A stretch of 64,000 nucleotides of DNA, taken from assembly GCA_965221165.1 (NCBI GenBank), contig CBDCRP010000003.1, positions 704,001 to 768,000 on the forward strand, written 5' to 3'. The position numbers were made by a program, and so were the translations under genes. The notes under the pieces are model-generated. The model had not been told where the DNA came from. It searched no databases and saw nothing but the letters and a program-made list of their open reading frames with translations. Below are positions 43,633 to 60,421 of this stretch, piece by piece (the first letter of the stretch is position 1; every line of letters starts with the position of its first letter). The stretch is from a bacterium (lineage in GTDB: Bacteria; UBA8248).

Positions 43633-43647
43633 GGCGAACGGTTTGGC

Positions 43648-43911
43648 GGGGACAGGCCCTTCCCGGGGCCGTCCCACAGGTCGCGACATATCCCTGCCGC
43701 CGCTCCTATCGGGAGTCCGCGCATCACCAGGGAGAACACACGGGTTCTCTCCTACGAAACCATCGCAAACCCTCCCGCATTGGTCGCAATCCCTCCTCCC
43801 GTAGGGGACGGAACCCCTCCTCGGGGCCGTCCCACGCATACATGCGACCTGTGTTCTCCAGCGAAAGGCCGGGCCGCATATATGGGTGGCGGACATATAT
43901 GTCCGACCTAC
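43648..43911. repeat. Cluster of GTAG-type REP-like palindromes
   Basis: GTAGGGGACGG...CCGTCCC (~43801) and GCATATATGGGTGGCGGACATATATGTCCGACCTAC (~43876), both shared with the 61 kb cluster. Confidence 0.75.
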
Positions 43912-44173
43912 AGTTAGAATCCCTCCCCCCTCGGTCGCGCACAATTCCTCCCTTCCCGGTCGGGTGAATCCCTCCCGCTTTGGTCGGAATTGATCCGCAT
44001 TTGCGCGTATCGCGCACGGGTCGAGATTCTCTATACTTGCGCGCAAGGCGCGCCGCCGTGGCCGATCCTGCGCCTTGCGGGCGGGGGCGCTTTCAAGAGA
44101 GCATGAGAGTAGACGTGAGCGGGCGTCGCGAGGGGAATTGCGGGCGAATTCCGCGCGCTAAAAGGCTCTCGAT

Positions 44174-44279
44174 AATATGTGAAAAATGGTGAAAAAAGGT
44201 GAAAATATCTGAAAATTTATCTTATTGATATATATGGGGTTATGCGGAATTTTCCCCTTTATGGGTGTGAGGGGGGGGT
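44174..44279 (+). repeat. Left copy of inverted element (four 10-bp (G/C)TGAAAANNN units plus conserved AT-rich/G-rich tail)
   Basis: Aligns by eye to the reverse complement of 58211-58335. Confidence 0.85.
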
Positions 44280-45155
44280 CTACGCGTTGATGGAGCAAAG
44301 CAGCGCGTGGACCGCGGCGTTCAGAGGTGTGGGGATTCGGTGCCTGGCGCCCAGCCGAACGACCGCTCCCGTCATGACGTCCGCCTCGATGCGGCGCCCG
44401 GCTCTTCTGTCCACCAGCATGGAGGTGGTCGCTTCAGGGTCCGCATCCTGTAAGCGCTCGATTGTTCGCTCGGCGACGTCAACCGCCAGTTCCGCGCCCT
44501 CCGCCCTGCCTACAGAGGCGCATTCGCGCACGAGTCCCCGGCAAAGTTCGGCAACGTCCGGATCGAGCAACACGCCTCTGCCCTTATCGGTCAGCGCGGT
44601 GGCTGGCCCGGCGCCGATATTGTTGCACAATTTCGCCCAGGAGACGGTCGTAAAATCGGAAGTCGGCTTTACGGGCACGTCCGTGCCCTCGTAAAGGGAG
44701 GCGAGAAGCCGTCCACCCCGGCCCTCTTCGGGAACAAGCCCGGCGCCTCCTTGCTGCGCCACACGGCCGGGAGCCAGCCTGTCCGCCGGGCAGTTCACCA
44801 CGACAGGAACGACCTCAGCCCCTCTGGAGTATGGCTCCACCCGTTCTTTGTGCTCCACGCCATTTTGCAAAACGGCGATGATGGTGTCGTCTCCCACGAG
44901 AGCTTCCAGCCAATGTGCAACACCTTGCACCTGGTGCCCTTTCACCGCCAAGATGACGCAGTCGACGGGACCTGCTTCGGAGGGATCGGTGACGCACTCC
45001 ACTTGTGATTCGATAACGGAATCCTGCATTTCCACAACGAGCTTGTCGATAGGCTTTCGTACACAGAGCGTAACGTCGTGCTTATTCGATTGACACAACC
45101 GAACCCCGAACACCCCACCAATGGCGCCAACCCCCAACACGGCTACCCTACTCAT
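44280..45155 (-). CDS. 2-dehydropantoate 2-reductase family (PanE/ApbA-like)
   Basis: GVGAIGG, LAVK, LQNGV, WAKL, SMLVD...E. Confidence 0.88.
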   Translation of the reverse strand: MSRVAVLGVGAIGGVFGVRLCQSNKHDVTLCVRKPIDKLVVEMQDSVIESQVECVTDPSEAGPVDCVILAVKGHQVQGVAHWLEALVGDDTIIAVLQNGVEHKERVEPYSRGAEVVPVVVNCPADRLAPGRVAQQGGAGLVPEEGRGGRLLASLYEGTDVPVKPTSDFTTVSWAKLCNNIGAGPATALTDKGRGVLLDPDVAELCRGLVRECASVGRAEGAELAVDVAERTIERLQDADPEATTSMLVDRRAGRRIEADVMTGAVVRLGARHRIPTPLNAAVHALLCSINA

Positions 45156-45175
45156 CCATCACGCTCCAGGAAATT

Positions 45176-46120
45176 TCATACCAAAACACGATGGCCCTTC
45201 CATGAGGCCACAGATACGAAAACACACACGATGCCGGCCAGAGAATCCCAACCCGAGGTATGTCCTATTTTATCCAGCGCACGCAAAGCGGAATCCAAAC
45301 GTGCTTCATCCGCCATACCCATCGCCGAAATCATTTCATGCAAAGCCTGCGCACCCTGTCCCCTGGCCGCACACTCCAAATGCGCACAACTAATTTTATT
45401 CGTTCGCTCTGCGGCCTGATTCAATATGACGCTGGATACCTTCCTTAAAACATCGAAATATCCCAGTGCATACAACGCTATCATCACACCACACCAAAAA
45501 TCATCTCCGGATGGCGTGAGTCCCGGGCCGAGGCCAACGAGCTTGTGATTGATGGAAGAAAATTCCAGGCTCTTCTCCCCATTGAGAGTACCTGAGAGCC
45601 AATTTCTAAAATCGGCAATCTCCTTCCAGGAAGTTTCTTGAAAAAAATCCTCACCTGAGACTTCCTCGCCGCTCACAATGTACGGGATAAGCGGGGCCAG
45701 ACCCTCTCGAGGCCCTCTTTTTACTATCCTCTCAACGGGAACTGAGAGGCTACGCCGAACATACCCAAAATCCCAGGCAACGGGCAGTGGCTCCGGTTTC
45801 CATTCTTCCCGCTGGGAAGTATCGATTCCCATGCTCGGACCGAACTGGATAAAACCATTTTGGATTGTGGCTCTACCTTTGGCGGCTATTTTCTTTCTTA
45901 AATCCATACCATCCGGGAATTCACAAAGCGCATTCAACGGTCCGGGCCCAATGCTCCATGCCCCGATGCACGCGAACTGCCCCGATGTATTTTCAACATA
46001 CAAACTTCTGCGAAACACGCTGATTATTTTCGCTTCGCCCTGTAAGGCAAGAAATTCTTGAACAAATGCACCCACAAGAACCACTCGGAATGCATTCGGC
46101 ATTATATGGGCTGGCATCAT
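45176..46120 (-). CDS. DUF2877 (AllH/YahE-like) protein
   Basis: GLGPGLTPSGDD, TNKIS, IGHTSGWD. Confidence 0.8.
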   Translation of the reverse strand: MMPAHIMPNAFRVVLVGAFVQEFLALQGEAKIISVFRRSLYVENTSGQFACIGAWSIGPGPLNALCEFPDGMDLRKKIAAKGRATIQNGFIQFGPSMGIDTSQREEWKPEPLPVAWDFGYVRRSLSVPVERIVKRGPREGLAPLIPYIVSGEEVSGEDFFQETSWKEIADFRNWLSGTLNGEKSLEFSSINHKLVGLGPGLTPSGDDFWCGVMIALYALGYFDVLRKVSSVILNQAAERTNKISCAHLECAARGQGAQALHEMISAMGMADEARLDSALRALDKIGHTSGWDSLAGIVCVFVSVASWKGHRVLV

Positions 46121-46145
46121 AAAATGATCATTTCATCTCGCAAAG

Positions 46146-46183
46146 AAAATCCCCTCACCCTTTCGTGAGTGAGGGGATTTTTT
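46146..46183. terminator. Bidirectional rho-independent terminator
   Basis: AAAATCCCCTCAC...GTGAGGGGATTTT. Confidence 0.8.
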
Positions 46184-46195
46184 CATTCACGATAC

Positions 46196-46531
46196 TTATG
46201 CACATCCAGGTCCTCTAACCTCACTCGCAGCAGCACCAGATGGTACAAGCGTCTCGGCAAAGTTTGGATCGGCTTGTTGTTTCTCGACCAGTTGGCCTAT
46301 TTGCGAGAGTAACATCTCACGTTTCATCAATCCCAAACGATAGATGCCCATCGGATTTACAAGTTTCATATAGTAATGGTTTCCAGGGTCATACTCCGCA
46401 GAGCAAGCAGAGGGTTTTTGGGCGATAGAGAGGGCATAGCTAAAAACATCCGCAAATTGAGCCAGCACTTCCTCATCATGTAAGTCTTCGGGTATTTCGG
46501 GAAATCTGGCCAAGAGTTCCTGGACGTTCAT
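46196..46531 (-). CDS. Hypothetical protein with C-terminal GPGCA
   Basis: AAGGAG RBS and its own terminator. Confidence 0.75.
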   Translation of the reverse strand: MNVQELLARFPEIPEDLHDEEVLAQFADVFSYALSIAQKPSACSAEYDPGNHYYMKLVNPMGIYRLGLMKREMLLSQIGQLVEKQQADPNFAETLVPSGAAASEVRGPGCA

Positions 46532-46666
46532 CGTTAAAACTCCTTAAAGGGATGACTTATCTCAAGCGGAACGATTCATTAAGCTTATCATATATTGAAC
46601 TGACTAGCTCTTTACCTCCCTGCTTTTCCAAGGTCGAAAAGGATGAACCCAATAAAAGTGTGAGGA

Positions 46667-48640
46667 TTACATTTCTCTGATGAACCTCGCAGCATAGCTT
46701 CTAATATTTTTTCCGTTGAGAACATGAAAACGACGAACGCGGGCGATGGTTTCTCCAGAAAATCGACCAATGGGGATGTGAATTAAATGCTTTTTATATA
46801 AACGTGCGAACTGGCGCCAGCGTGTCTTGGGTGGGTGCGGGCTCACCAGAGCGATGAACCGTTCTTTCGAATGAAAACATGCTCCTGCAATCAATCGTTC
46901 GTCCAATGTCTGTGTGTAGTGAAATCGTGAATCCCGCCAGACATCCTCGATATATCGGGGAGGAAAAACAAAAAACGCCCCGCCATATTGTGATTCCGCG
47001 ATCCCCGGACCCACCAAATTATCCTCAAACGGGGTAGCATACATACAGAGCGTTGATTCTTCACTATGTTCCGCATACCACATCGTACGCCAAGAATACT
47101 TCTCGGCATCCGCGGGCGTATCGAACAAAAAAACGACAACCTCCAAATTCCCTCGTGCCGGGGGAATTTCTTTTACGTACAGGTCGCCCGTATGCCAGTT
47201 GCGGAGCGTTTTCCGCATATCAAGACCATCTTTTATCGATGTCGTGAATTTTTCAGTACGGGCCAAATCCTCTCCCAATAGTGCCTTGGCCTGCTCGCGC
47301 ACATGGGTATGAAAACTCTCTATCGCCTCATCTTCTGGCGGCCAGGAACACATACCGAAAGGATTCCACCTCTGGGCCCATTCCTGTCTTTCAAACGGAG
47401 TGGGTCTAGGTTTGAGGGAAATACGCCTCCAAATAGCGGCAGAGCCACCCAACCGACTCTTGATCGTTCCGACGCCTATATCAGGGAATACCGCACGGAT
47501 CATACCTACATGGACTAAATCACTTTCACTGGCTGAAGAGGTTTCACGCTGATACGGATATTTCCGCGCGGTCTCTAATAGTGCCAGAGCAAAAGCATCG
47601 CCTGCGGTCTGCTTAGCGGCAAGAGTGAGGGTAAACAAATCCGGCGTCAATCTTCTCGCTTGAAGCGTCAAATTCCGGACGTATTGCAAGAAAACCTGAA
47701 GCCTTTGAGGCGTCACCCAGTTTTGCACGGGTCGATGTTCTCTTAACCATGCCGTTCTCGCCTCCAATAGGAGTTCCTTGACACCGTCGATAGATAAATT
47801 GAAGTCACCAATGAATTCTTCGCGTTTTTTTTCGTATAAATAAGTCAGATAGGGAAACTCCCCCAAGAAAAAGGCCAAAGTACCTTCCGATACTCTATAC
47901 CTTTGGGGCCGGTTGAGGGATATGTCTAAACGGGGCCCAAACAATTTTTTGTCACCAGACGGACCTTCTCGACAGGCTGAGTGAATCCAGGGCCAATCCA
48001 TCGCAGAACACACGAAAACGATGCGCTTGTATCTCGCCTCGAGTTCGAGCAAGGCATCGGCCATCCAGCGGATTCTCGCAGCACGCTGTGATGAAGGAGG
48101 AGGCTTGGGTGCTACCGTCAAAAGAGACGCAGCAAAGGCTTCCATCGGTACTTTTTTGAGTACATAAGGATCTGGCAACACATGAACATCCTCATGAAAT
48201 CGTTCCACTTCTAAATCTACAAAAAATCTGGGGATACGTTCTCCCATTGCTACCCTGAGAGCTGAGATCACCGGCTGACAAGGATCAATCGGCACATAGT
48301 TATGGGAAGGCAAAACTGATTTATCCGCCATAAACTCTTCTTGAGCGTTCAAATCATCCTCTGACTGTGGGTATTCATCCCATGACTCATCAAATTCCGC
48401 TTCACCTCCTTCAAAATATGATTGGGCATCCTCATTCATCGACACCATGGAGACATATGGAAGGTTCTCAACACCTGCTTCTACCTCATCTTGAAAAGAT
48501 GGCGGCAGAGGAACCGCAACGCAGTCAGGTTCAAATTTCAAAATCCTATCCCGCACTTCGACGGCAAAGTCTCCCGACCCATGGATGACGGGAAGTACAC
48601 TGATCCGATTGGTGATGCCCAGAAAATCTTGCGCGGCCAT
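46667..48640 (-). CDS. Uncharacterised 657-aa MoxR partner protein
   Basis: Long ORF starting 2 nt after the AAA+ gene's stop. Confidence 0.8.
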   Translation of the reverse strand: MAAQDFLGITNRISVLPVIHGSGDFAVEVRDRILKFEPDCVAVPLPPSFQDEVEAGVENLPYVSMVSMNEDAQSYFEGGEAEFDESWDEYPQSEDDLNAQEEFMADKSVLPSHNYVPIDPCQPVISALRVAMGERIPRFFVDLEVERFHEDVHVLPDPYVLKKVPMEAFAASLLTVAPKPPPSSQRAARIRWMADALLELEARYKRIVFVCSAMDWPWIHSACREGPSGDKKLFGPRLDISLNRPQRYRVSEGTLAFFLGEFPYLTYLYEKKREEFIGDFNLSIDGVKELLLEARTAWLREHRPVQNWVTPQRLQVFLQYVRNLTLQARRLTPDLFTLTLAAKQTAGDAFALALLETARKYPYQRETSSASESDLVHVGMIRAVFPDIGVGTIKSRLGGSAAIWRRISLKPRPTPFERQEWAQRWNPFGMCSWPPEDEAIESFHTHVREQAKALLGEDLARTEKFTTSIKDGLDMRKTLRNWHTGDLYVKEIPPARGNLEVVVFLFDTPADAEKYSWRTMWYAEHSEESTLCMYATPFEDNLVGPGIAESQYGGAFFVFPPRYIEDVWRDSRFHYTQTLDERLIAGACFHSKERFIALVSPHPPKTRWRQFARLYKKHLIHIPIGRFSGETIARVRRFHVLNGKNIRSYAARFIREM

Positions 48641-48642
48641 AA

Positions 48643-49617
48643 CTAATCGTCTTGTTGGGGGTGCAATGGGCTATCGTCACCAAAGAAAAGATCGCCGAAA
48701 TCAAGTGGTGGTGGCTCATCGCCGAGGGCTTGTTGTCTTCTACGCGCCAGATCTTTCAAGTCCAACGCATCATCTCCTAAAACCTTGGTGAGCGACTCTC
48801 TCCACGCTTCGTCTTGAGCAAGTGGATGATCTGAGTCCTGCGCGAGACGTTTAAGCGCGAATTGAAGGATATGGATTCCATCCCGAGGGGAATATTCAAG
48901 GTCCAGTTCATGGGCTTCCTGTAAAAACTCCACTGTCAGGGCCAACATCTCATTGGGAGCAAACGGCAAGTGATACTTGAGGATAGCCAGTTCATCATTT
49001 TTGTTTGGAAATTCAAGCCCTAAAGTGGGTTGCAGTCTCGAGAGAATATAATCGGGCACCTCGTACGTTGAAGCATCTTCGTTCATGGTCACGCAACAGC
49101 GAAAATCTGGGTGTGCCTTCACCGTTGCACCCGCTACGATGGACTCCACATAACGGCGATGATCGAGCAATGGTGCCAGTGAGGCCCAACTTTTTTCGCT
49201 CATCCGATTTCCTTCATCCAGCACACAGACCCCTCCCCTTATCATCGCTGTAACAAGAGGCGATGCGTGATAGATAATTTTTCCTGATTCCGCCAACACG
49301 GGTGTGATCAAGAGATCCTCAGGACGCGTATCAGAAGTGCACTGAAAAATATAAAGCTCTTGGTTTCTCTCCCGCGCCGCCGCCATCGCCAGTGTTGTTT
49401 TCCCGATTCCCGGAGGACCAATAATTCGCGGAGAGAGAGAAAAATCCTCTTCCGCGACAACCAGCCAGCAGGCGTGAAGCTGGCGCAGAACCTCTATCTG
49501 GCCGATCCATTCCTGATCAGCATCGATGTGTCTGCTCAGGTGTAGGAATACCCCTTCAATTTCCACCAACCCCACCCCTAATTTTTCATTGACTGATGTC
49601 TTCTCATGCACAATCAA
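48643..49617 (-). CDS. MoxR-family AAA+ ATPase
   Basis: [21 protein letters not shown]...TMN, SRL. Confidence 0.9.
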
Positions 49618-49685
49618 CTCCTACGTCCAAAATCCCACCGTAAAAGATAATGACATCTCGCTCTTATCATTCGGGAATATCTTCT

Positions 49686-50432
49686 TTAATCGGTAAAATA
49701 CCCTCCGTTTACATCCAGTGCTTCACCAGTGATATGCGCAGCGTCCTCACTAGCGAGAAATAGAGTGGCTGGAACCAATTCCGAGGCCATAGCAAACCTT
49801 CCCATTGGATGTTTCGCCAGTGCTTTGTTGTATAAATCCGGGCCGAATTCCCGCATTAAAGGCCCATCAATCGGCCCGGGAACTAAGCAGTTCACGGTCA
49901 CTTTCGTTTTCGCTAATTCGCGAGCGAGGTTGAACGTCATGGCTAAAATACCACCTTTTGAAGCCGCATATGTGAGATTATAGCCCAGCCCCCCTGATTT
50001 CCCAGCCCCAGAACCATATAGAATAATTCGCCCCGCCGGAGAATTCATGAGTGCGGGCATCGCCCCTTGAATGCAAAAATAAGGCGCTAAGAGATTCACG
50101 CGAAGCGCGCGCTTCCAATCAGACGCATCAAGCGAGAGCGGGGCTTTCACCAACATGTTCGCCGCTGTGTGAATGAAGACATCACATCCACCAAGCCATG
50201 CGATTGCTTCTTTGGTCATGGTCTTCACCTCATCAAAATTTTCCAAATCACAGGGTATCTTTTTCATCATCTCACGGGATCCTGAGATGAGGTGCAACTT
50301 TTCTGAATTTCGACCCGTGGCGACGAGTTTCGCCCCCGTATTCAGAAATCCCTCAACAAGCGCTTTGCCTACATCTCCCGTGGCCCCGGTCAGAATTACC
50401 CTTTTGCCCTGAAAATCAAAACGAAGCGCCAT
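49686..50432 (-). CDS. SDR family oxidoreductase
   Basis: TGATGDVG, YAASK, ITGEALDVNGG. Confidence 0.9.
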   Translation of the reverse strand: MALRFDFQGKRVILTGATGDVGKALVEGFLNTGAKLVATGRNSEKLHLISGSREMMKKIPCDLENFDEVKTMTKEAIAWLGGCDVFIHTAANMLVKAPLSLDASDWKRALRVNLLAPYFCIQGAMPALMNSPAGRIILYGSGAGKSGGLGYNLTYAASKGGILAMTFNLARELAKTKVTVNCLVPGPIDGPLMREFGPDLYNKALAKHPMGRFAMASELVPATLFLASEDAAHITGEALDVNGGYFTD

Positions 50433-50587
50433 CCCGCTTCCCTCGAAAACCGGTGACCCAACTTTCAGCAAGCCCCCTGCCCTGATATATATCGAATAAG
50501 ATACAATATCGACTGAAGAATAACATTCTTATAGGGAATCACCTTGTAGCCGCTTCATATGCAACAGGAACACTGTGGAGAGTACTC

Positions 50588-51853
50588 ATGAATTTGTTTG
50601 ATGAACTTAAAATCCGCGGCTTAGTCCGTGATCACACGGATCAAGCGGAAATGCTTAGTGCTTTTGAAAAAGGCGGTATGAGCCTCTATAGCGGCTTTGA
50701 CCCTACGTCCGACAGTTTGCACGTCGGGAATTTGGTTCCCATTACAGGACTCATGCGTTTTCAACGCGCGGGCCACCGGCCGATTGCGCTCATCGGCGGT
50801 GGAACCGGGATGATAGGAGACCCATCGGGAAAATCAGAAGAACGAAACCTTCTAAAGGCAGAAGTTTTAGAACACAACCTCAGAGGAATCAGGGCCCAGT
50901 TCGAGAGGTTCCTGGATTTTGATGCAAGTCCCAATGCCGCTCGGATGGTGAACAACGCAGAATGGCTGAACGAGATTCACCTCATCGATTTTTTGCGCGA
51001 TGTAGGCAAACATTTTTCTATCGGCTACATGATGGCGAAAGAATCCATTAAGTCACGCATCGCCAACGCGGGAATATCATACACCGAGTTCAGTTATATG
51101 GCGCTTCAGGCGTATGATTTTTTGCACCTGTTCGAAAAAGAAAATTGCACCTTACAAATCGGCGGCTCTGATCAATGGGGTAACATCACAGCAGGCATCG
51201 AGTTGATTCGGCGGGTTCATGGAAAACCCGCATACGGAATGACTTTCCCGCTCATCACGACTTCCGATGGCAGGAAATTCGGTAAAACAGAAAAAGGCAA
51301 TATCTGGTTGGACCCAAAGCGAACCAGTCCATACCGATTCTCGCAATACTGGATTCAGACAGACGACAGGGATGTCGGCAGGTTTTTAAGATATTTCACT
51401 TTTTTATCGATTGACGAGATCGATGAAATTGAAAAAGAACACCTCAAGTCTCCGGAGAAACGAGAAGGACAACGTCGCCTCGCAAAGGAGCTGACGACGC
51501 TCGTACATGGCAAAGCCGCAGCGCGGAGCGCGGAGCGCGCCGCCAAAATTCTTTTTGGAGTTCAACTCGATGGCATTGAGGAAAACGATTTACTCTCGGC
51601 GGCAGAGGAAATGCCAAGAACCCTGCGATCAGGAGCACCACCATATCCGCTAATAGATACCCTGGTGGAAACCGGACTTTGCAAGTCGAAATCCTTGGCG
51701 CGAAAAGACTTAAAAGGCGGTGGCATCTATGTGAACAATCGCCGTATTACGGGAGAGGGCAGTATGTTATCTGTCGATGATATATTGTTTGGTCGGTACA
51801 TTCTCCTTCGGAAGGGAAAAAAGAACTACCATCTGATAGAATGTCATCCATAA
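50588..51853 (+). CDS. tyrS: Tyrosine--tRNA ligase
   Basis: GFDPTSDSLHVGN, QIGGSDQWGNI, KFGKT, S4-like C-terminus. Confidence 0.97.
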   Translation: MNLFDELKIRGLVRDHTDQAEMLSAFEKGGMSLYSGFDPTSDSLHVGNLVPITGLMRFQRAGHRPIALIGGGTGMIGDPSGKSEERNLLKAEVLEHNLRGIRAQFERFLDFDASPNAARMVNNAEWLNEIHLIDFLRDVGKHFSIGYMMAKESIKSRIANAGISYTEFSYMALQAYDFLHLFEKENCTLQIGGSDQWGNITAGIELIRRVHGKPAYGMTFPLITTSDGRKFGKTEKGNIWLDPKRTSPYRFSQYWIQTDDRDVGRFLRYFTFLSIDEIDEIEKEHLKSPEKREGQRRLAKELTTLVHGKAAARSAERAAKILFGVQLDGIEENDLLSAAEEMPRTLRSGAPPYPLIDTLVETGLCKSKSLARKDLKGGGIYVNNRRITGEGSMLSVDDILFGRYILLRKGKKNYHLIECHP

Positions 51854-51994
51854 GCAGATACAAGAATCGTCATTCGCCGCATTTTGCAGGAGAGATGAGT
51901 GAATCTTCTTGAAAATCCCAAATCACCAGAAGATGGTGAAGATGAATTTGCTTCTCGGCCTGCGTTTAGGATTTCCTGAAACAACCCTTCAAGT

Positions 51995-53272
51995 ATGAAC
52001 GAGCGAAGAAGTCCTATCCAGGTCGAATATCATGACCTGCCGCCTGAGTTCCACCAGTGGAAATGGCGTGTTCTCATCGCCTTTTGCGGCTTCTATGCTT
52101 TCAACTATCTGGGCAGATTCAACTTCAGTCTGGTGCAATACGCCGTCATCCAAGATATGGGCATCACGCGAGTCGATACCGGATGGATCAACTCATGGAT
52201 GTTTTGGGGCTTTGCGTTCGGCGATTTGATTTTTGGACGAATCGCGGAAAGAATAGGCTATCGAAACACCATTCTTTTCGCCGCAATCGCCACGTCTGTA
52301 TTCAACTTCATCGCGAGTTTTGGAAACTCCATCACCACGCTCGCCATACCCTGGGCGGTAGTCGGTTTTGTGAATGCGGCGACATGGGGGCCGGGGCTTG
52401 GCCTGGTGGCGCAATGGTGGCCCAGACGCGAGCGGGGGCAAGCGATTGGCCTCGTGGGAACAGCCGCCGGAATCGCGCTCCTCATCGTTTGGGCGATCGT
52501 TCCCTGGGTGGCGGCGCAATATGGCTGGCGAGCCGCGATTCGCTACCCCCCCATGATTATTGCCGTCATGGGAATCATTTTTTATTTTATCGCCAAAGAC
52601 AAGCCTTCAGAACTGAATCTCCCTGAATATAAGGAGTCGGATGACGTATCCCGCGAAGCAGAAGCAGCAGGAAGCGATAGTGAACATGGCCTAAAGGCGT
52701 ATCTTCACCTGATGACAAATCTGCGCTTTTTCTTGGCGTGCCATGTCAAAGGACTGGACAATGTGGTTCGCTACGGCGTCGTCTCATGGGCGCCTTTGTA
52801 TTACGCCCAGGTGGGTGGGTTCAACCTCAAACAGATGGGTTTGCTCACCTTCGCCTATCCTTTGGGATATTTGTTCGGGCCCATATTCGGCGGAATCATT
52901 TCTGATCGATTCTTCAAGAGCAACCGCTCCATCGTCATCATGCTTGCCGCCTTTCTGAGCGCTGCTGCGATGATGGGAATCGCCTATGCGCCGGCCGATA
53001 ACATTCCGCTCGCCGTCGTTTTGCTCATCGTCGGTGGATTTTGCGTCAACATGTCTACCGTACAGGCGCTGGGGGTAGATCTGGCCGGGAGACGGCTGGC
53101 CGGAACAGCGGCAGGTGTATTGGATGCCCATGGGTATATTTACGGCGCGCTTCAAGCCATATTCTTTGGGTGGCTATCTCTCGCCATTGCAAATGGATGG
53201 TTTTGGGTGTTCACAGCCATGGCGGCCAGCCGACTCATTGCCGTAGCCCTCGTCTGGAGGGTGCGAGCGTAA
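51995..53272 (+). CDS. MFS transporter (GlpT/OPA-like)
   Basis: YLGRFNFS, WWPRRERG, GIISDRFF, AGTAAG, about 12 TM helices. Confidence 0.9.
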   Translation: MNERRSPIQVEYHDLPPEFHQWKWRVLIAFCGFYAFNYLGRFNFSLVQYAVIQDMGITRVDTGWINSWMFWGFAFGDLIFGRIAERIGYRNTILFAAIATSVFNFIASFGNSITTLAIPWAVVGFVNAATWGPGLGLVAQWWPRRERGQAIGLVGTAAGIALLIVWAIVPWVAAQYGWRAAIRYPPMIIAVMGIIFYFIAKDKPSELNLPEYKESDDVSREAEAAGSDSEHGLKAYLHLMTNLRFFLACHVKGLDNVVRYGVVSWAPLYYAQVGGFNLKQMGLLTFAYPLGYLFGPIFGGIISDRFFKSNRSIVIMLAAFLSAAAMMGIAYAPADNIPLAVVLLIVGGFCVNMSTVQALGVDLAGRRLAGTAAGVLDAHGYIYGALQAIFFGWLSLAIANGWFWVFTAMAASRLIAVALVWRVRA

Positions 53273-53322
53273 ACGGACGATTTTCCTCAGGAAAGCCAAG
53301 TAGCCCACGCCATCAGACGAAG

Positions 53323-54723
53323 TCAACATTTTTCATTTTCCCGTTTCATCCCTTTCAATATCTCTAACCGAATCCTGTCTTCATCACCTTCAAGTTTTTC
53401 CGCTAGGAAAGAAAGCAGGCGTTGAACCCAAATCGCTCGCTGTTCGTGTGGCATCACTAAATAAAAAGAGGTACCGAAACGCCAAATATTATCCATCCCT
53501 CGAATGATGATGTCGAATCGAACATCATCCTGAGCCGTCAAATATAGCGCTGCCAAAAGGTCTTTCCCATTATTCAGATGGAATGGAAATGATTTTTCCG
53601 TTCCATCTCCAAAGCGAACACTCAGTCCAAGGGTATTCAAATCCGTCCGCTCCGGTAAACCCAAAACAACCGAAACCAATTCAGGCGAAGCCGACTCATC
53701 AATACCAGCAACGATATAAGTTTCTCCGCCAACGATGAATCGTCCTGATGAGAGAACTCTATCCTCTTCATTTGTTTCTCTCAAAAAATCCTTCAACCAA
53801 TCGGGCAACCTCTCCCGCCCAGGACATGCTGTAGGCGTTTCGCCTTCATTCAACAATTGGAGTTTGTTTGCCCATGTAAGCAAAGAAATTAACAATGGTG
53901 GCGCGGGATGCAAAATTTCCGACTCCCAGGGCGTAATGCCGTCTATGGCGCCTTCAAGGCTTTTCATCAATCCAGCCCGCATATTCTCCCACGACTTTGT
54001 TCGGTCAATATCTTCTGTAGCTTCAATCGAAATCCCCAAGCCCTCTATCACCGCCAATCGATGAACCATTTCAAATAGATGATGATTTTCCTCTACGTTC
54101 CTATACATTTCCCGAGCTTCGCCGACATAGTCGGTTAAACCGTTGCTCTCAAGCCATGAATCCAAATCCATCGGCAGAGGCGTCAACCCGAGATATGAAT
54201 CGCCATAGCGTCGCCAAAGGCCACGAGCGCCTTCTAATGTGGCGCTTGTGGCCGGTTCTGAATGAATCTCCCAAACATCGGAAAGTTCTTTTCGTATGGC
54301 GTCTTCACCCATGCCATCGTCGAGCATATTCGCCAAACGACGGAGCAGTAAGCTGAAAAACGCTGATTGCGCCTTCACCATAGACGACAATTTTCCGGGT
54401 CTCGACGTCAGAGCCGTCAGCATCAGATACAAAGCACCGATTGACGGCTTTGCTCCCTGAACACCAAAAAGCGTTGTCATCTTCTCCAGGTACTGAAGCA
54501 CAAAACTCAACTCCTCACCGGCCAACAACTTCAAGTGTATAAAAGAAATCGGAAGGGCTTGCTCAGGCAAGGTAGGTTCCGCCTGGGGAGGAAAAAGCAT
54601 TTGGGTGAAATTTTGTCTAATTTGTTCGCCTACGTCACCAAAACTCTCACGGAAGTAGTGGTTACAAGACGACTCCCACCAGTCGTAAAGCAAACTTTGC
54701 CGTCCAGTTGGAGACACCCTCAT
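53323..54723 (-). CDS. Hypothetical protein (466 aa)
   Basis: Long ORF with an ATGA overlap to the upstream gene. No motif recognised. Confidence 0.7.
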   Translation of the reverse strand: MRVSPTGRQSLLYDWWESSCNHYFRESFGDVGEQIRQNFTQMLFPPQAEPTLPEQALPISFIHLKLLAGEELSFVLQYLEKMTTLFGVQGAKPSIGALYLMLTALTSRPGKLSSMVKAQSAFFSLLLRRLANMLDDGMGEDAIRKELSDVWEIHSEPATSATLEGARGLWRRYGDSYLGLTPLPMDLDSWLESNGLTDYVGEAREMYRNVEENHHLFEMVHRLAVIEGLGISIEATEDIDRTKSWENMRAGLMKSLEGAIDGITPWESEILHPAPPLLISLLTWANKLQLLNEGETPTACPGRERLPDWLKDFLRETNEEDRVLSSGRFIVGGETYIVAGIDESASPELVSVVLGLPERTDLNTLGLSVRFGDGTEKSFPFHLNNGKDLLAALYLTAQDDVRFDIIIRGMDNIWRFGTSFYLVMPHEQRAIWVQRLLSFLAEKLEGDEDRIRLEILKGMKRENEKC

Positions 54724-54935
54724 TCGCTCTCGGATACAGATGAGCGATCGCGCTCAGCGATTGATGGAACATGCGCTTTTTTTTGAATCAACCGCCCAAG
54801 AGAAAATAGAATGACTGCAGAACCTAAAATGACGAGTTGGAGCGCATAGGCCGAAGGGTTCAAAATTCCGATGAGCAGCGCAATGCCGCAATCCACCATG
54901 GCAAGAATTTGAAGGGCTCGTCCCAAGCCATACAT
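54720..54935 (-). CDS. Small two-helix membrane protein
   Basis: Overlaps both neighbours (TAATG, ATGA). Confidence 0.65.
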   Translation of the reverse strand: MYGLGRALQILAMVDCGIALLIGILNPSAYALQLVILGSAVILFSLGRLIQKKAHVPSIAERDRSSVSESE

Positions 54936-56131
54936 TAACCAAGTTGTCCCAAAGCCGCTCTGATTCGCTCAATCCCTTCTTTTACGTTTTCCAGGGTAGT
55001 CGCGTAGGAGAAACGCACGTAATCGTCGGCGCCGAATCCTGCTCCGGGCACGCCGGCGCATTGGGCGTGTTCGAGGAGATACAGCCCCACATCCATTGAA
55101 TTTTTTAATACTCCATTCGGCCCTTGACGCCCGAATACACCGCTCACCCGCGGAAAAGCGTAAAAGGCGCCCTTGGGGTTCACAACGCTTAAACCTTCTA
55201 TTCCGTTGAATCCCTCGACAATCGCCTTTCTTCTCGCGTCGTACTGCGCCAGCCATTCGTTAAGGAACTCATGCGATCCCCTGAGGGCTGCAATCCCCCC
55301 ATATTGAGCGAAGGAAGTGGCGTTGCTCGTGCTCTGGCCCTGCAGCGTGTCCATGGCAGAGATGATTTCAGGTCTTGCGAGCGTATACCCCATCCGCCAA
55401 CCCGTCATCGCATACGTTTTCGAAAAACCGTCCAAAACAAGCGTGCGCGCCTTCATCTCGGAAGAGAAGCAGGCGATCGACACATGCTCCTCACCGTCAT
55501 AGGTGATTTTCCCGTAAATCTCATCGGACATGACCATCGCGTCGGTGGATAAAACGACTTCGGCAATCGCTTCTAATTCCTCGCGGCTATACACGCAGCC
55601 AGAAGGGTTGCACGGGCTGTTGAGCACCACGACTTTCGTGCGCGCAGACACGACTTCGCGCAATTCCTCGGCCGTCATTTTATGGCCGTTTTCCTCACTC
55701 GTCTTAACCAGAACCGGTTTCGCCCCGGTCAGGGTGGCGACGGGCTCGTACGCCACCCAGATGGGCGCGGGGATAACGACCTCATCGCCACCTTCGACGA
55801 GGACGTGCAGGGCGTTGAAGACCGATTGCTTTCCGCCCACGGTGACGATCACTTCCGTTATCGGGTCATATCGAAGGCCCTTGTGTTCTTCGGCCCAATC
55901 GCTAATCGCCTCTCTCAAGGAGGGCACGCCCCGAACCGCCGTGTATTTCGTAGCGCCGTCACGGAGACCCTGGATGGCTCCTTCCTTGATGTGCTCGGGG
56001 GTATCGAAATCGGGCTCTCCTGCAGCGAACGAGATGACGTCGAAGCCTTGCGCCTTCATTTCCGCCGCTTTGGTATTCATCGCCAGGGTCGGAATGGGAG
56101 GCAGCTTGCTCATTCGGGATGCAAAACGCAT
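54935..56131 (-). CDS. aspC: Pyridoxal phosphate-dependent aspartate aminotransferase (class I/II)
   Basis: GEPDFDTP, NSPCNPSG, SDEIY, SKTYAMTGWRMG, RFSYA. Confidence 0.9.
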   Translation of the reverse strand: MRFASRMSKLPPIPTLAMNTKAAEMKAQGFDVISFAAGEPDFDTPEHIKEGAIQGLRDGATKYTAVRGVPSLREAISDWAEEHKGLRYDPITEVIVTVGGKQSVFNALHVLVEGGDEVVIPAPIWVAYEPVATLTGAKPVLVKTSEENGHKMTAEELREVVSARTKVVVLNSPCNPSGCVYSREELEAIAEVVLSTDAMVMSDEIYGKITYDGEEHVSIACFSSEMKARTLVLDGFSKTYAMTGWRMGYTLARPEIISAMDTLQGQSTSNATSFAQYGGIAALRGSHEFLNEWLAQYDARRKAIVEGFNGIEGLSVVNPKGAFYAFPRVSGVFGRQGPNGVLKNSMDVGLYLLEHAQCAGVPGAGFGADDYVRFSYATTLENVKEGIERIRAALGQLG

Positions 56132-56159
56132 GAAGAACTCCAGGGTTAGAAAATAAATG

Positions 56160-56645
56160 TTATTTGCGGAATCGTTCGCCAAGCGCCTCACGCACGGATA
56201 AAGACACGTGTTCGCTCACGTCTCCGCCGAGTGAAGCGACTTCCTTTACAAGACTGGAGCTGAGGAAGCTATATTGTTCACTAGGCATGAGAAAAATCGT
56301 TTCGATCTCCTCGTTCAACCTTCTGTTCATGAGCGTCATCTGCATTTCATAATCAAAATCGCTCACGGCGCGAAGACCGCGAATGATGGCTTGGGCATTT
56401 ACATTGAGGGCGAAATCCACGAGCAACTCACGCTCGAAGCTCGTGACTTCGAGTTGCTCCGAGCCCTCGAATTCTTCGAGGAAAAAATTTCTCCTCTCCT
56501 CGAAACTGAACAAAGGCTCTTTCGAGGGGTGAGCGGAAATAGCTACGGTGACCTTCGAGAAAAGTTTCTGGCTCCTGCGGACGACATCGAAATGCCCTTT
56601 TGTCGGCGGATCGAAGGTTCCCGGGTATACCGCGTGACTTTCCAT
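56160..56645 (-). CDS. coaD: Pantetheine-phosphate adenylyltransferase
   Basis: YPGTFDPPTKGH, RGLRAVSDFDYE, SSSLVKEVA. Confidence 0.96.
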   Translation of the reverse strand: MESHAVYPGTFDPPTKGHFDVVRRSQKLFSKVTVAISAHPSKEPLFSFEERRNFFLEEFEGSEQLEVTSFERELLVDFALNVNAQAIIRGLRAVSDFDYEMQMTLMNRRLNEEIETIFLMPSEQYSFLSSSLVKEVASLGGDVSEHVSLSVREALGERFRK

Positions 56646-56899
56646 GAAAATAAACCTCATCAGGAGCGAAAGGTCTTCCCCTTTCAAGGGAAAGGGGCTT
56701 ATCCCCTGTGCGAAATCCGCGTTAAACCTAGTCTTTTTGGATATCTCGTGTCAACTTGACGGATGAAAACGCCGCGAGGAGAACCAAGCGGGGTTTGTCC
56801 CCCATTTCGCCCGCATTTATGGCAGGATCCCGAGCTCTATTCGGCATTTTCCCGTGTCGCCGGGAGCCGATTGGCACCCTGAATCGATGACGGAATACC

Positions 56900-57460
56900 C
56901 TATGGTTTCAAGACCTCTCGCACCATGTGGCTGATTTCGGGAAGAATGATTTTTTCCATTCCCGTGCGGCAGGCGTTCCCCGAGCCGGGAAGCGTCATGA
57001 TGATGGTGTCCCGGCAAGTCCCCGCCGTTGCCCGGGTCAACATGGCGGCCGTGCCGACATCCTCGAAACTCACGTGACGAAACAGCTCGCCGAAGCCGGG
57101 CATCTCCTTCTCCAGGATGGAAACGACGACATCGTATGTCGTATCCCGTTTGGTGATGCCCGTGCCCCCGTTCGATATCACCACCTGGATATCGGGATTT
57201 GCGCACGCCTCGAACAGGGACTCGCGAATTTGGACCGGTTCATCCTTCACGATGCGGTAAAAGGGCACTTTATGGCCCCTGTCGCTCAGCATGTTCATGA
57301 TCAATTTGCCGCTCGTGTCTGTTTCTTCCGTGCGCGTATCGCTTACGGTGAGCACGCCGCACGTTACGGCGTCCGGCCCCTCGGCGCGGTGCACTTCAAA
57401 AGTTTTCAGATCGGCCGCCTGCTCGACTTCCCAGCGGGATGGACCCTCACTCTGGCTCAT
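56900..57460 (-). CDS. moaB: Molybdenum cofactor biosynthesis protein B (MogA/MoaB)
   Basis: LTVSDTRT..TDTSG, NGGTGITKRDTT, PGFGELFR, LPGS. Confidence 0.9.
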   Translation of the reverse strand: MSQSEGPSRWEVEQAADLKTFEVHRAEGPDAVTCGVLTVSDTRTEETDTSGKLIMNMLSDRGHKVPFYRIVKDEPVQIRESLFEACANPDIQVVISNGGTGITKRDTTYDVVVSILEKEMPGFGELFRHVSFEDVGTAAMLTRATAGTCRDTIIMTLPGSGNACRTGMEKIILPEISHMVREVLKP

Positions 57461-57521
57461 TCTTATCTCCTGCTCTTCGGTTTTCATCGATATCCGTTTT
57501 TATGCACTCGCGCCGGAGAAT

Positions 57522-57555
57522 AAAAGAACCGGAGAATGAATTCTCCGGCTCTTTT
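57522..57555. terminator. Rho-independent terminator-like hairpin
   Basis: AAAAGAACCGGAGAA-TGAA-TTCTCCGGCTCTTTT. Confidence 0.65.
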
Positions 57556-57640
57556 GTTGGCTTACTCGGCAATTACGGAGAACGCCGACCGGGAGTCTGC
57601 GCCATCCCTCCGGCTGGGTCATCGCTCACAATTTCAAAGT

Positions 57641-57919
57641 TTATTTCTTTTTGAAGCCCTTGGCCATCATGCAAGAATCGAACTTGCTCTGCGCATACGT
57701 GGTTTCGGAACTGATCGCGGTAGGGCCGCCTTTGGCTTTCGAATCGAATATGAACTCCTCGCGATCCGAACAACCCTTCAGGTCTTTCACCGCCTGGTCC
57801 ATTTTCACGCCTACGCCGCGCTTCACCCAAACCTGATGTTTGGGCGGCGTACATCCCGCAACCACAAAAACCATTGCACCCGCTAGAACAATACCGGCCA
57901 TTTTTCGCATGAGTCGCAT
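57641..57919 (-). CDS. Small lipoprotein
   Basis: VAGC lipobox, W...G....DLKGC...CMMAKGF pattern. Confidence 0.75.
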   Translation of the reverse strand: MRLMRKMAGIVLAGAMVFVVAGCTPPKHQVWVKRGVGVKMDQAVKDLKGCSDREEFIFDSKAKGGPTAISSETTYAQSKFDSCMMAKGFKKK

Positions 57920-58210
57920 TCTCCCATAAAATCAACGCCTCGCTTATTTTCTGAAAACCACGAGGTCAAAACGCTCTCCAATCAAGGCGCTTCATAGCAA
58001 TCAAAATTTACCATTCTATTTCCCCATCGTCCAACACAAGATACACTAGCATCCCGTCCGGTCAAAATCGAGTCCTTCCGGCAGCAATTCGGATGCGCGG
58101 GATACGGCTGACTGCATTCAAAAATTCAATATATCTATTTTCCGTTTTACCCGTTGATTCATCCAGTTTTTCGCGTTTTTAAGAGCACGGGCCTGCGCGG
58201 CGAACGGCGC

Positions 58211-58335
58211 ACCCCCCTACCCCTCCCATAGGGGGAAAAATACGTATAACTCTTTATATATCAACAAGATAAATTTTCACTTATTTTCAGATATTTTCCC
58301 CTATTTTTCCCTTTTTTCCCCTGTTTTCACAAATT
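58211..58335 (-). repeat. Right copy of inverted element (six 10-bp units plus conserved tail)
   Basis: Reverse complement aligns with 44174-44279. Confidence 0.85.
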
Positions 58336-58470
58336 CCGCGCGCTCTCGACGCACCGGCTCGCCGCTAAAGCCTAACACGCCCGCACGCCCGCCCCATGAC
58401 GGCAAGTGCGGGCGCATGCGCGTCGGCACCTTGCCGGTCGTTTCCGGCCGAAGGGGGAGGGTGCGGTTTC

Positions 58471-58538
58471 GCAGGGGTCGTTCGTGAACGACCCGGCATT
58501 CGGTTCGTCGTTACGGGCCGTCCGCGAACCGCCCCTGC
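58471..58538. repeat. Degenerate inverted REP pair
   Basis: GCAGGGGTCGTTCGTGAACGACCC ... GGGCCGTCCGCGAACCGCCCCTGC. Confidence 0.55.
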
Positions 58539-58671
58539 GGGTGGATGAGCGGCCGCCGCCGCGAATCCACAAAAGCGCGCCTCGCGCAAGGCGGACCCCA
58601 ATCCCGCCCGGATATGCTATAAACAAGAAAAAATGCGACGCTCCGCACAGCCTGAAAAGGAGAAGAACAAG

Positions 58672-59478
58672 GTGAGGAAACCGGACTTGGCAGGGAGCTG
58701 GGCGCTCATCCTGGGAGCCAGCAGCGGCTTTGGAGAAGCGAATGCGCTCAAGCTCTCGAGCCTGGGGGTGAACATTTTCGGCGTTCACCTCGACAGAAAA
58801 GCCACGCTGCCGAACGTGGAGCGCATCCGTGAGGAAATTAAAAAAAACGGCGCCGAATCCCTCTATTTCAACGTGAACGCGGCGGGCCATGAAGAGCGCG
58901 CGAGCGTTCTGGATCAAATAGAGGAACACCTGGGCGGGAACGCGAAGGGCGCCGTGCGCATCCTGCTCCACAGTCTGGCTTTCGGCACGCTCAAGCCCTA
59001 CATCGCCGATGAGGAGAAAGACTCCATCTCCCCCAGGCAGCTCGAAATGACGCTGGACGTCATGGCGAACAGCCTGGTGTACTGGACCCAGGCGCTCGTG
59101 CGGAGCGGCCTCATGGGCTTCGGGGGCCGCATCTACGCCATGACGAGCGCGGGCGGCCACCGCATATGGAAAACATACGGCGCCGTATCGGCGGCCAAGG
59201 CCGCGCTCGAAAGCCACATCCGCCAACTCGCCGTCGAACTCGCGCCAAAGGGCATTACGGCGAACAGCATCCAGGCGGGCGTAACGGACACGCCGGCACT
59301 CCGCAAAATCCCCGGAAACGCCGAGATGATCCACAACACGAAAAAAATCAACCCGCACGGGGAACTGACGACGACGCAGAAAGTAGCCGACGCCATCGCG
59401 ACGCTGGCCGCCTCCGGCACACAGTGGATGACGGGCGATTTGATTCGGGTCGACGGAGGCGAGGACATCGCGGGTTGA
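58672..59478 (+). CDS. SDR, enoyl-ACP reductase FabL-like
   Basis: LGASSGFG, YGAVSAAKAALE, GVTDTPALRKIP. Confidence 0.85.
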   Translation: MRKPDLAGSWALILGASSGFGEANALKLSSLGVNIFGVHLDRKATLPNVERIREEIKKNGAESLYFNVNAAGHEERASVLDQIEEHLGGNAKGAVRILLHSLAFGTLKPYIADEEKDSISPRQLEMTLDVMANSLVYWTQALVRSGLMGFGGRIYAMTSAGGHRIWKTYGAVSAAKAALESHIRQLAVELAPKGITANSIQAGVTDTPALRKIPGNAEMIHNTKKINPHGELTTTQKVADAIATLAASGTQWMTGDLIRVDGGEDIAG

Positions 59479-59668
59479 AGCGCGTTTCCAAGGACCACGG
59501 ATCCATTCCCCGGGAGGAAACCCGCCCGGGCGCGAGATAGCCGGGAAACGCCTGGGCCGCGCGCTTCGGGAGAGGTTTTATATCCTCTCCCATATTCTCA
59601 TGCGCCCGGACGCCCATGCTTCCCACCGCGCTTCGAGATGAACGCCCCTCCTTTCCCTTAGGTATCAC

Positions 59669-60421
59669 ATGAGCGAGCCGGAAGTCGTTTTCGTCGTCTG
59701 CGTTCTCTTCTTGGGAGGATTCGCCAAGGGGTCGATCGGTTTCGGCACTCCGCTGGTGGCCGCGCCGCTTCTCGCGCTCTTTCTCGTCCCCCAAAACGTC
59801 GCCACCCTGCTTGCGTTCTCTCTCCTCGTCTCGAACGTCGTCGACGCCTACCGCCTCCGTTCGGAGTGGCGCGCCATCAGGGAAATTTCGCTCTATCTCC
59901 CGTTCGCCCTGGCATTCGTACCGGTCGGGGTGTGGTTTCTCAGATTCGGAGACCCCGATTCGATCCGCCTCATCATGGGCCTCATGGCGTATACATACCT
60001 GCTCGTGGAGCGCCGCCTCGGCTCCTTCAAGGAACTCGGCGCGGGGCTGCAAAAAATCGTGGCCGCCGTCATGGGCGCGACCCTCGGTTTCGTATACGGG
60101 ACGACGACCATCAGCGGCGTCATCAGCACGATTTACTTCAGCATGCTGAGACTGCCGAAAAACCCCTTCATCTTCTTGATGAACATCTTCAACGCGGCGG
60201 GCATGGCCGTCATGATCTTGAGCCTTTCACACCAGGGCATTTATACGAAGCCCCGCTTTATCGAAGGGCTGCTGGCGACCATCCCCGTGTGTATCGGATA
60301 TCTGGTGGGCATCCGGGTTCGCGAGCGCATCGACCAGGCGCTTTTCTTCAGGATCATCCGGATCGCCTTGTTCTTTATCGCCACGAGCCTGGTGGTCAAG
60401 TTCATCTTGGCGAAGATGTGA
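59669..60421 (+). CDS. Sulfite exporter TauE/SafE family protein
   Basis: GGFAKGSIGFG..LVAAP, multi-TM. Confidence 0.85.
   Translation: MSEPEVVFVVCVLFLGGFAKGSIGFGTPLVAAPLLALFLVPQNVATLLAFSLLVSNVVDAYRLRSEWRAIREISLYLPFALAFVPVGVWFLRFGDPDSIRLIMGLMAYTYLLVERRLGSFKELGAGLQKIVAAVMGATLGFVYGTTTISGVISTIYFSMLRLPKNPFIFLMNIFNAAGMAVMILSLSHQGIYTKPRFIEGLLATIPVCIGYLVGIRVRERIDQALFFRIIRIALFFIATSLVVKFILAKM

Follow-up and report, generated by a model that had tools for sequence, protein, structure and literature searches.

A 64,000-nucleotide stretch of the genome of a bacterium from the GTDB lineage UBA8248 (assembly GCA_965221165.1, contig CBDCRP010000003.1), referred to here as the window, carries two short sequences with phased A-tracts that face each other inward across 14 kb of genes. 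Both were found to be members of a repeat family with 55 copies in the genome, and this element is a dispersed intergenic repeat family limited to a subclade of one genus. In this genome its copies are found at the borders of low-GC domains more often than expected and there nearly all point into the domain, and the window pair is one instance of this recurring inward-facing border arrangement. A preliminary description of the window, made from its letters, had by implication treated the two copies as a unique pair, which the genome-wide nhmmer search did not bear out. The genome under study (G000) is a 3.69-Mb assembly of three contigs, in which the window occupies positions 704001-768000 of contig C3. 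The assembly is 96% complete with an estimated contamination of 8.5%; despite this contamination, the synteny with relatives speaks against chimeric joins at the window locus.

The two window copies share one layout. The left copy (whole nhmmer match 44160..44291, + strand; C3:748160-748291, score 109.5) starts with an array of four 10-bp units, GTGAAAAATG, GTGAAAAAAG, GTGAAAATAT and CTGAAAATTT (44179..44219, + strand), whose A-runs begin 10 bp apart and whose A-tracts are helically phased. The array leads into an IHF-type core (44218..44230) that on the - strand differs from WATCAANNNNTTR at one position and that includes the family-invariant TA..TTGA positions, and the TTGAT itself lies at 44225-44229 (+ strand). 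These are followed, all on the + strand, by a GTTA(T) box (44239..44243; TTA is invariant and G reaches 90% in the genus-wide alignment), a single inverted array unit (AATTTTCCCC, 44248..44257) recognised by its reverse-complement match to the array about 23 nt 3' of the TTG, a C-run (44254-44257), and a G-run (44271..44278) that ends the element, the panE stop codon coming next at 44280-44282 on the - strand. The right copy (58194..58348, - strand; C3:762348-762194) has the top score in the genome, 129.2. Its array of six 10-bp units, delimited by the A-run spacing, lies at 58271..58331 (- strand), its IHF-type core TATCAACAAGATA, again with one mismatch to the consensus, at 58259..58271 (+ strand), and its GTTAT box (58250-58246), inverted unit ATTTTTCCCCC and C- and G-runs (58235-58212) together at 58212..58250 (- strand). 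Mean column identity between the two copies is 78% over an alignment of 188 columns. The inverted pair that had been described, pointing inward with four versus six A-tract units at a 10-bp pitch, an IHF-like site and a G-run, was therefore present where it had been placed, and these features support the view of both sequences as polar modules resembling protein-binding sites, with phased A-tracts and an IHF-type core.

The genome copies were collected with an nhmmer profile built from the first matches at E<=1e-3, and a score of at least 60 bits was taken to define a full copy. By this rule 39 of the 55 copies are full, and copies were found on all three contigs. The element is about 130-150 bp long and intergenic: the cores of all 55 copies lie between genes, and the overlaps with open reading frames (ORFs) touch only outer parts of the element (gene calls outside the window were crude ORF calls, and a Pfam check was made for the window and two other regions). 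Its array consists of four to seven units of about 10 bp (nnnGAAAAnn) with one A-tract per unit, so that all tracts face the same side of the helix; full copies typically contain five to seven A-runs. Among the 212 A-run spacings in the full copies, 178 measure 9-11 bp and 129 exactly 10 bp, and 42 of the 44 arrays with at least four phased A4+ runs in the genome come from this family, so that the array is far beyond chance. The array is followed by TGAAAATTTA, a last unit that hardly varies, and then by five bases that do vary, TTGA(T) with its A/T run, a stretch of two or three purines, and GTTA. In about 20 of 35 copies, the sequence that best matches the reverse complement of the array is one inverted unit, 21-27 nt 3' of the TTG; the tail of C-run and G-run is common to roughly 15 copies. 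On their forward strand the full copies contain 46% A, 27% T, 20% G and 7% C. No Rfam match was obtained at either window copy (43000-59500, E<=1). A sub-threshold match to RsaJ in an AT-rich spacer within the 14-kb segment (46080-46180, + strand; 32.9 bits against a gathering score of 100, E=1.4e-4) is probably due to chance.

The link between the element and base composition is visible in the window, where the interior (45-58 kb) has about 50% GC and the sequence outside about 60%; the GC profile and segmentation place a low-GC domain of 50.4% GC between flanks of about 60% at 45001..58500. Low-GC domains of at least 4 kb were delimited in the whole genome by a two-state segmentation, whose parameters were picked after seeing the data. 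This gave 30 domains of 4-53 kb, in total 483 kb or 13% of the genome. In the windows around domain borders 24 of the 55 copies were found against 5.8 expected (p=3.5e-10), and 23 of these 24 border copies point inward (p=3e-6), while no copy lies more than 2.5 kb inside a domain, where 5 were expected (p=0.005). A test of oriented GC profiles, which is independent of the segmentation parameters, was made on 54 copies, one copy too close to a contig end being excluded. GC is lower downstream of the element in 44 of the 54 (Wilcoxon p=2.4e-6; sign test p=3.4e-6), and the oriented mean falls from about 0.60 upstream to about 0.55 downstream, over distances of up to 12 kb. Inward copies occupy both borders of four domains, or of five if the two segments on either side of an IS256-family transposase gene are counted as one; in one further domain one border copy points inward and the other outward. 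The splitting gene itself (C2:125032-126405; L062 12032-13405) belongs to the IS256/Mutator family and has 66% GC inside a domain of 48% GC. The preliminary description had set its idea of domain-organising sites against the case of many copies placed and oriented at random. Copies are indeed many, but their orientation at the borders is far from random, and the proposal of polar sites organising a chromosomal domain stands as far as orientation is tied to low-GC domains, while the fork trap or terminus boundary offered with it fell away, as described below. A role for the element at domain borders is possible.

The genes in the domains are ordinary core genes, such as glnA, glnB, glnD, gltX, ispH, eno, obg, proB, nadD and nrdR. 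They differ from other genes mainly in GC content at the third codon position (GC3, 0.56 vs 0.75), compared with 0.57 vs 0.62 at the first (GC1). High expression of core genes was considered as an explanation of the low-GC domains and was rejected, as the genes for ribosomal protein L2 and rpoB lie outside them. The composition of the window domain persists across species: it is low-GC in six close relatives (46-55% vs 60-65%) and only mildly lower (63-68% vs 70-73%) in two 70%-GC species without the element. The polarity was also examined in the relative G034, with a sample made up of the two copies at the tyrS locus and the 20 best among the listed matches extending into the core, array-only matches being excluded; GC is lower downstream in 17 of these 22 copies (p=6e-4).

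The range of the element was determined with a sequence-only profile of 16 copies from 9 genomes of the genus (R1 model). At E<=1e-8 this model gave 9-37 matches in each of 15 out of 21 same-genus genomes and no match in 19 genomes from 8 other genera of the same family. At E<=1e-3 it gave 64 matches in G014, 60 in G007, 72 in G034, 60 in G002 and 0 in G001. A scan for the exact pattern in one genome per prokaryote species returned 49 single hits, mostly chance hits in AT-rich genomes, three of which come from same-genus relatives (OZ241875.1, OZ244713.1 and CBDCMA010000008.1), and blastn against plasmids and phages gave no match to the element. Arrays in the genus often read CGATAAAT(A/T)(T/C) rather than GTGAAAA, ahead of the same core. 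In this core the columns TA-N5-TTGA are invariant throughout the genus, which corresponds to the register of WATCAANNNNTTR on the opposite strand.

Comparison of the window locus among relatives showed both conservation and turnover. At the panE border the core is kept in G005, G034, G007 and G014 while the flanks diverge (five species with G000), and the array there is of the CGATAAAT type in those four relatives versus GTGAAAA in G000. At the right border, the full copy of G000 is absent from that site in G005, G012, G007, G002 and G014, which have only an older degenerate array that G000 keeps at about 58100-58180. At its right border G034 has a duplicate of the left-border element that takes in about 24 nt from the 3' end of panE (last codons and stop), giving an inverted border pair of 189 bp with 82.5% identity (L094 3135-3313 and 17141-17328); the presence of the panE end in the right copy shows copying between the two borders. 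In G014 the segment from panE to o92 is flanked by a non-coding inverted repeat of 1,192 bp with 96.6% identity (L097 2096-3286 and 17180-18354). On the outer sides of this repeat lie an autotransporter beta-domain fragment and, at the other end, an IS256-family transposase gene. The border copies of a 42-kb domain on C3 of G000 are each other's best match, with 95% identity over 81 nt. Hence inward pairs at the same borders arose or were homogenised more than once. Partner-specific similarity as a rule for border pairs was discarded, since mutual best matches were found in only one of five inward pairs tested in G000; in the mixed pair with one outward copy the partners ranked 6th and 8th.

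This turnover could be that of a selfish, MITE-like or gene-converting repeat (MITE, miniature inverted-repeat transposable element) without host function, for which the link to low-GC borders would only reflect where insertions are tolerated or retained. Copy number varies and gains are lineage-specific, as with the full right copy of G000; the G034 right copy, carrying the end of panE, was copied from the left border; the array type has been replaced at an orthologous site; and there is weak terminal inverted similarity between the array units and the inverted unit. However, no Y1/RAYT transposase domain was found in the 96%-complete G000, and there is no clear terminal inverted repeat or target-site duplication, the only likeness being 7-13 nt between array units and the single inverted unit; at one recent gain, the right-border copy, no duplication could be defined. 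Tolerance of insertion alone would also leave unexplained why 23 of 24 copies point inward at left and right borders alike, and in five species the core has persisted at orthologous sites while the flanks diverged. A selfish repeat is thus considered an unlikely account of the family, though one that deserves some weight.

The preliminary description had also offered the ends of a mobile or invertible segment as an explanation of the pair, with the 14 kb being moved or flipped by recombination at the two copies. The relative inversion of the two copies agrees with such an arrangement, as does the sequence that had been described as shared just outside both, which was confirmed as the 13-mer AATTCCGCGCGCT. 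It occurs exactly twice in the 3.69-Mb assembly, both times on the + strand and so in direct orientation, at 44147..44159 outside the left copy and at 58332..58344, touching the outermost unit of the right copy. The left occurrence, though, falls within a 100-bp upstream extension common to two other copies, and the 13-mer is 20 nt from the array on the left but 0 nt on the right. Between the two copies the longest identical run is 14 nt (by eye), and when about 50 copies are ranked by similarity the partners come only 12th and 22nd on each other's lists. The claims of that description that neither transposase nor recombinase is present, and that tyrS, coaD and aspC lie inside, agree with the Pfam scan, which found no transposase or recombinase family among the ORFs at 44-58 kb.

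The interior is ordinary, vertically inherited core genome. It begins with panE for ketopantoate reductase (44280..45155, - strand), whose 3' end abuts the left copy, and further contains tyrS (50588..51853, + strand; the sole copy in the genome), an aspC-type aminotransferase gene, coaD and a mog/moaB-type gene (54935..57487, - strand), and a gene for an MFS transporter, all assigned by Pfam; coaD and mog are, like tyrS, single-copy. Between these genes and the right copy (58038..58180, - strand) lie the degenerate older array (~58100-58180) and a conserved promoter-like site of the o92-mog-coaD-aspC operon (TTGACC-16-TATCTT, 58065-58038), both of which are present in relatives without the full right copy. 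The gene order from panE to o92 is kept in 8/8 same-genus relatives, and the orientation of this segment relative to the visible flanks is identical in all eight. The left flank (w36318-w40387) is kept as well, as seen in G005 and G006, and so is the fabI-like/TauE right flank in G007, G014, G001 and G006. No strand-changing joint was found in the contigs of runs X1 and X2 that contain this sequence, although contigs can miss rare variants; over 43000-60000 the contigs of X1, X2, X3 and X8 break at repeats and show no inversion joint. One X8 contig has a 12.8-kb skip, supported on one side by only 21 nt, which was disregarded. The synteny, the single-copy core genes, the lack of an inversion joint, the mutual ranks and the position of the left 13-mer in a shared extension together led us to reject transposon ends and site-specific inversion for G000, where either would be very improbable. 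In G014 the 1,192-bp repeat is long enough for homologous inversion of the segment.

Three features near this locus are recorded here in their own right. The interior contains a two-gene module (46667-49617, - strand) of an AAA_5 (MoxR/McrB-like) ATPase and a 657-aa protein without a Pfam or PADLOC match; six relatives have it, whereas the 70%-GC relatives G001 and G006 lack it, and PADLOC gave no match for five interior proteins. Just beyond the left copy, and separate from the element, are an autotransporter gene (40891..43632, + strand; Pfam) and after it short GC-rich dispersed repeats (43650-44130). The autotransporter (913 aa, in a region of 68% GC) was not seen at the homologous place in G005 and G006, where the genes of the left flank continue as far as panE. 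The GC-rich repeats, about 500 bp, occur at dozens of other sites, have a contig depth about three times that of their flanks, and were likewise not seen at the homologous place in G005 and G006. A linkage between the element and the autotransporter was considered and rejected, as there is only one beta-domain paralog in the genome.

The gene context of the copies bears on whether the element acts on transcription. Of 51 classifiable copies, 20 lie between convergent genes, 12 in tandem arrangements with the next gene opposed, 10 between divergent genes and 9 in co-directional tandem arrangements. The 20 convergent sites are about twice the roughly 20% expected (p=0.0014). The gene downstream of the element is convergent in 32 of the 51 (p=0.09) and co-directional in 19. 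The latter would be in line with a promoter module, in which the A-tract array would serve as a curved activator or an extended UP element, with TTGATATATA as an extended -10 that has no -35; firing inward, it would give mRNA before a co-directional gene, as ahead of the tal-like and cyclase-like genes about 100-150 nt away, and antisense or non-coding RNA before a convergent one. The promoters of tRNA-Asn, rRNA P1/P2 and mraZ in G000 are of the canonical TTGACA/TATAAT types, and rRNA P1 also has phased A-tracts just upstream of its -35, while TTGATATTCT occurs at the -10 of P2. The site scored in the right window copy is TTGATA-16-TATTTT. However, a sigma-70-type forward site (-35/-10 at 16-18 bp) is present in only 4 of the 39 full copies and TGnTAnnnT in 3 of them, and the A/T run after the TTG lacks a conserved -11A/-7T register. 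Downstream of most copies lies the 3' end of a convergent gene, and in G005 the copy at the panE border is conserved although it sits between convergent genes. The o92 operon, moreover, has its own conserved promoter-like site downstream of the right copy. The scarcity of sigma-70 sites, the excess between convergent genes and the separate o92 promoter make a plain promoter unlikely as the general function of the element, and the fuller promoter module is likewise held to be unlikely, if among the more serious alternatives.

The many convergent neighbours could instead suggest a polar terminator or insulator acting on RNA. Rho loads on C/U-rich, G-poor, unstructured RNA, and the reverse strand of the array would give RNA of this kind, in which C outnumbers G about threefold across the 39 full copies; such RNA could provide a Rho-type stop for transcripts leaving the domain, often right after the stop codon. 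In line with this, the stop codon of the convergent downstream gene (32 of 51) is often 0-80 nt from the end of the element, and no intrinsic terminator was predicted at either window copy. On the other hand, the CGATAAAT-type arrays at orthologous sites in relatives are roughly balanced in G and C (by eye), a Rho model assigns no role to the 10-bp phasing or to the IHF-type core, and 19 of the 51 copies have no gene to terminate. Such a Rho-dependent role is accordingly judged quite improbable. A 3' hairpin serving as structured RNA or terminator was considered separately and discarded, as its folding is at the level of shuffled sequences and neither window copy has a terminator-like site.

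Replication-related readings of the array were also considered, namely a fork trap or terminus boundary, a cluster of DnaA boxes or an MraZ operator, all of which had been raised in the preliminary description. The elements are polar, the outermost left unit fits a relaxed DnaA box, and the 10-bp pitch recalls MraZ sites. However, the 55 copies are spread along both large contigs (C2 and C3) in both orientations, with no replichore pattern and no relation to GC skew, which changes sign only near the ends of C3. The relaxed box (TTWTNCACA) is found in only 4 of the 55 copies, and the mraZ leader of G000 has different, GTGGG-type repeats and no copy of the element. None of the three proposals withstood this comparison, and of all the readings weighed here they have the least chance of being right. 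Two observations were made along the way. The + strand GC skew is negative along nearly all of C2 and C3 and positive at 0-150 kb of C3, with further positive 50-kb bins at 1750-1850 and 2050 kb of C3 and in two bins of C2, so C2 and C3 each probably represent about one replichore in the same relative orientation. The mraZ leader (L146 1740-1830, - strand; C2 ~568600-568700) is a textbook MraZ operator, with a TTGACA/TATAAA promoter followed by three GTGGG-type boxes at a 10-bp pitch.

The remaining feature to be explained is the core. WATCAANNNNTTR, which we take to be the IHF consensus, is matched exactly in 10 of the 39 full copies, with one mismatch in 16, with two in 9 and worse in 4, at the same place and on the same strand throughout; exact consensus sites number 111 in the genome, of which 10 lie inside elements. 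G000 encodes four proteins of the HU/IHF family, one IHF-alpha-like (C3:800051-800320), one IHF-beta-like (C3:472993-473259) and two HU-like, the best fits to the NCBIfam models being 109.2 bits for the IHF-alpha-like protein (cut-off 111) and 112.6 bits for the IHF-beta-like one (cut-off 115). Domains of H-NS (PF00816) and Lsr2 (PF11774) were not found in the 96%-complete genome, where unrelated analogues are possible. Table 2 of PMC6907758 prints WATCAANNNNTTR under H-NS and TCGATAAATT under IHF; judged against the motif in Lang et al. 2007 (PMC2094087), the two rows look swapped.

These facts led us to favour, tentatively and at somewhat less than even odds, the reading that the element is a DNA-level architectural repeat: a curved site bound by IHF/HU-type proteins and serving as a structural anchor or barrier, as has been proposed for BIME/RIP elements. 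The phased A-tracts together with an IHF-type bend would fold the DNA back on itself, and this fold would set the inverted unit alongside the direct units. IHF/HU-type proteins would bind the intrinsically curved site, and at the edges of AT-rich domains the bound site may act as an anchor or hold back transcription, spreading proteins or the diffusion of supercoils. For E. coli, BIMEs are discussed as candidate supercoil-domain barriers or nucleoid-structuring sites (PMC6907758).

Several observations weigh against this architectural reading. The GC drop starts about 1 kb past the element and not at it, and 31 of the 55 copies are not near any domain border. In G014, from a sample picked by the same rule as that of G034, GC is lower downstream in 11 of 21 copies, which is no polarity effect; many element sites are orthologous between species, so the polarity tests across G000, G034 and G014 are not independent. 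A third of the full copies (13 of 39) have at least two mismatches to the IHF consensus, and the IHF-like proteins fall 2-3 bits below the NCBIfam cut-offs. The 3' tail, as a hairpin, folds no better than shuffled sequences (mean z -0.31; z < -1.64 in 4 of 35 copies). Finally, as the array units differ at orthologous sites, conservation of the core could partly reflect gene conversion between copies and not selection.

A more specific version would make the copies polar boundary elements, bent and protein-bound modules facing inward that delimit domains of 5-50 kb with a GC3 about 19 points below that of the remaining genome, tying the borders together or insulating them. This proposal is doubtful, with a small chance of being correct. 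If true, it would explain why border pairs have repeatedly been homogenised or re-created, as in the 189 bp of G034, the 1.2 kb of G014 and the 95% pair at the 42-kb domain of G000, and the borders would set conditions of recombination, repair or silencing peculiar to the domain, from which the lasting GC gap would result.

Dispersed intergenic repeats with sites for nucleoid proteins have been known for decades, and their function is still debated. The present family is unusually readable, as it accounts for nearly every phased A-tract array of the genome, has an IHF-type core in a fixed position, and has an orientation tied to compositional domains that persist across species. If this tie is functional, the element offers a defined sequence for testing how the chromosome is partitioned and how gaps in base composition between adjacent syntenic segments are kept. 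If it is not, the family is one more lineage-specific repeat; the 14-kb segment is ordinary core genome either way.

Several known systems resemble the element in part. The ends of the transposons Tn7 and Mu carry several subterminal binding sites, and the window copies are like them in forming an inverted pair with unequal numbers of repeat units and an IHF-type site, but they differ in the lack of a transposase, in the syntenic single-copy core interior and in belonging to 55 mostly unpaired copies. The Correia elements of Neisseria are MITEs with IHF sites; they too are short, dispersed and intergenic, with lineage-specific gains, whereas the present element has tandem 10-bp units and no clear terminal inverted repeats or target duplications. 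With the UP elements and curved DNA of strong sigma-70 promoters the family shares phased A-tracts on one helix face, as in rRNA P1 of G000, yet 35 of the 39 full copies have no properly spaced -35/-10 and many copies face the 3' ends of genes.

Likeness to nucleoid-protein sites extends further. Units in relatives read TCGATAAATT or TCGATAAATA, which recalls, as a resemblance only, the high-affinity H-NS nucleation motif tCGATAAATT given in Lang et al. 2007 (PMC2094087), and the sites flank extended AT-rich DNA, in keeping with a model of nucleation followed by spreading. Against this comparison, G000 units are of the GTGAAAA type and no H-NS or Lsr2 domain was found in G000. Nor is polarity known for H-NS nucleation. 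A conceptual analogy is offered by the 10-bp-periodic Helitron minisatellites of C. elegans, which a preprint (bioRxiv 10.64898/2026.08.08.743475) proposes as mechanical chromatin insulators: these belong to eukaryotic chromatin, and the likeness lies in helical-period spacing, derivation from repeats and location at domain boundaries.

The closest parallel is with the BIME-1 and RIP (RIB) elements of E. coli. Unlike BIME-1, the present element has no inverted pair of REP palindromes, its core lying instead between an A-tract array and a variable tail, and it differs from BIMEs in general in being mostly a phased A-tract array, which BIMEs are without, in the failure to find a RAYT, in the absence of sequence similarity and in its orientation bias toward low-GC domains. 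RIP/RIB elements are dispersed extragenic repeats of E. coli with an IHF site. Like BIME-1/RIP, the family described here has tens of copies that are strictly extragenic and common at 3' ends and between convergent genes, and it has an IHF-type core in a fixed position, as far as the sequence tells.

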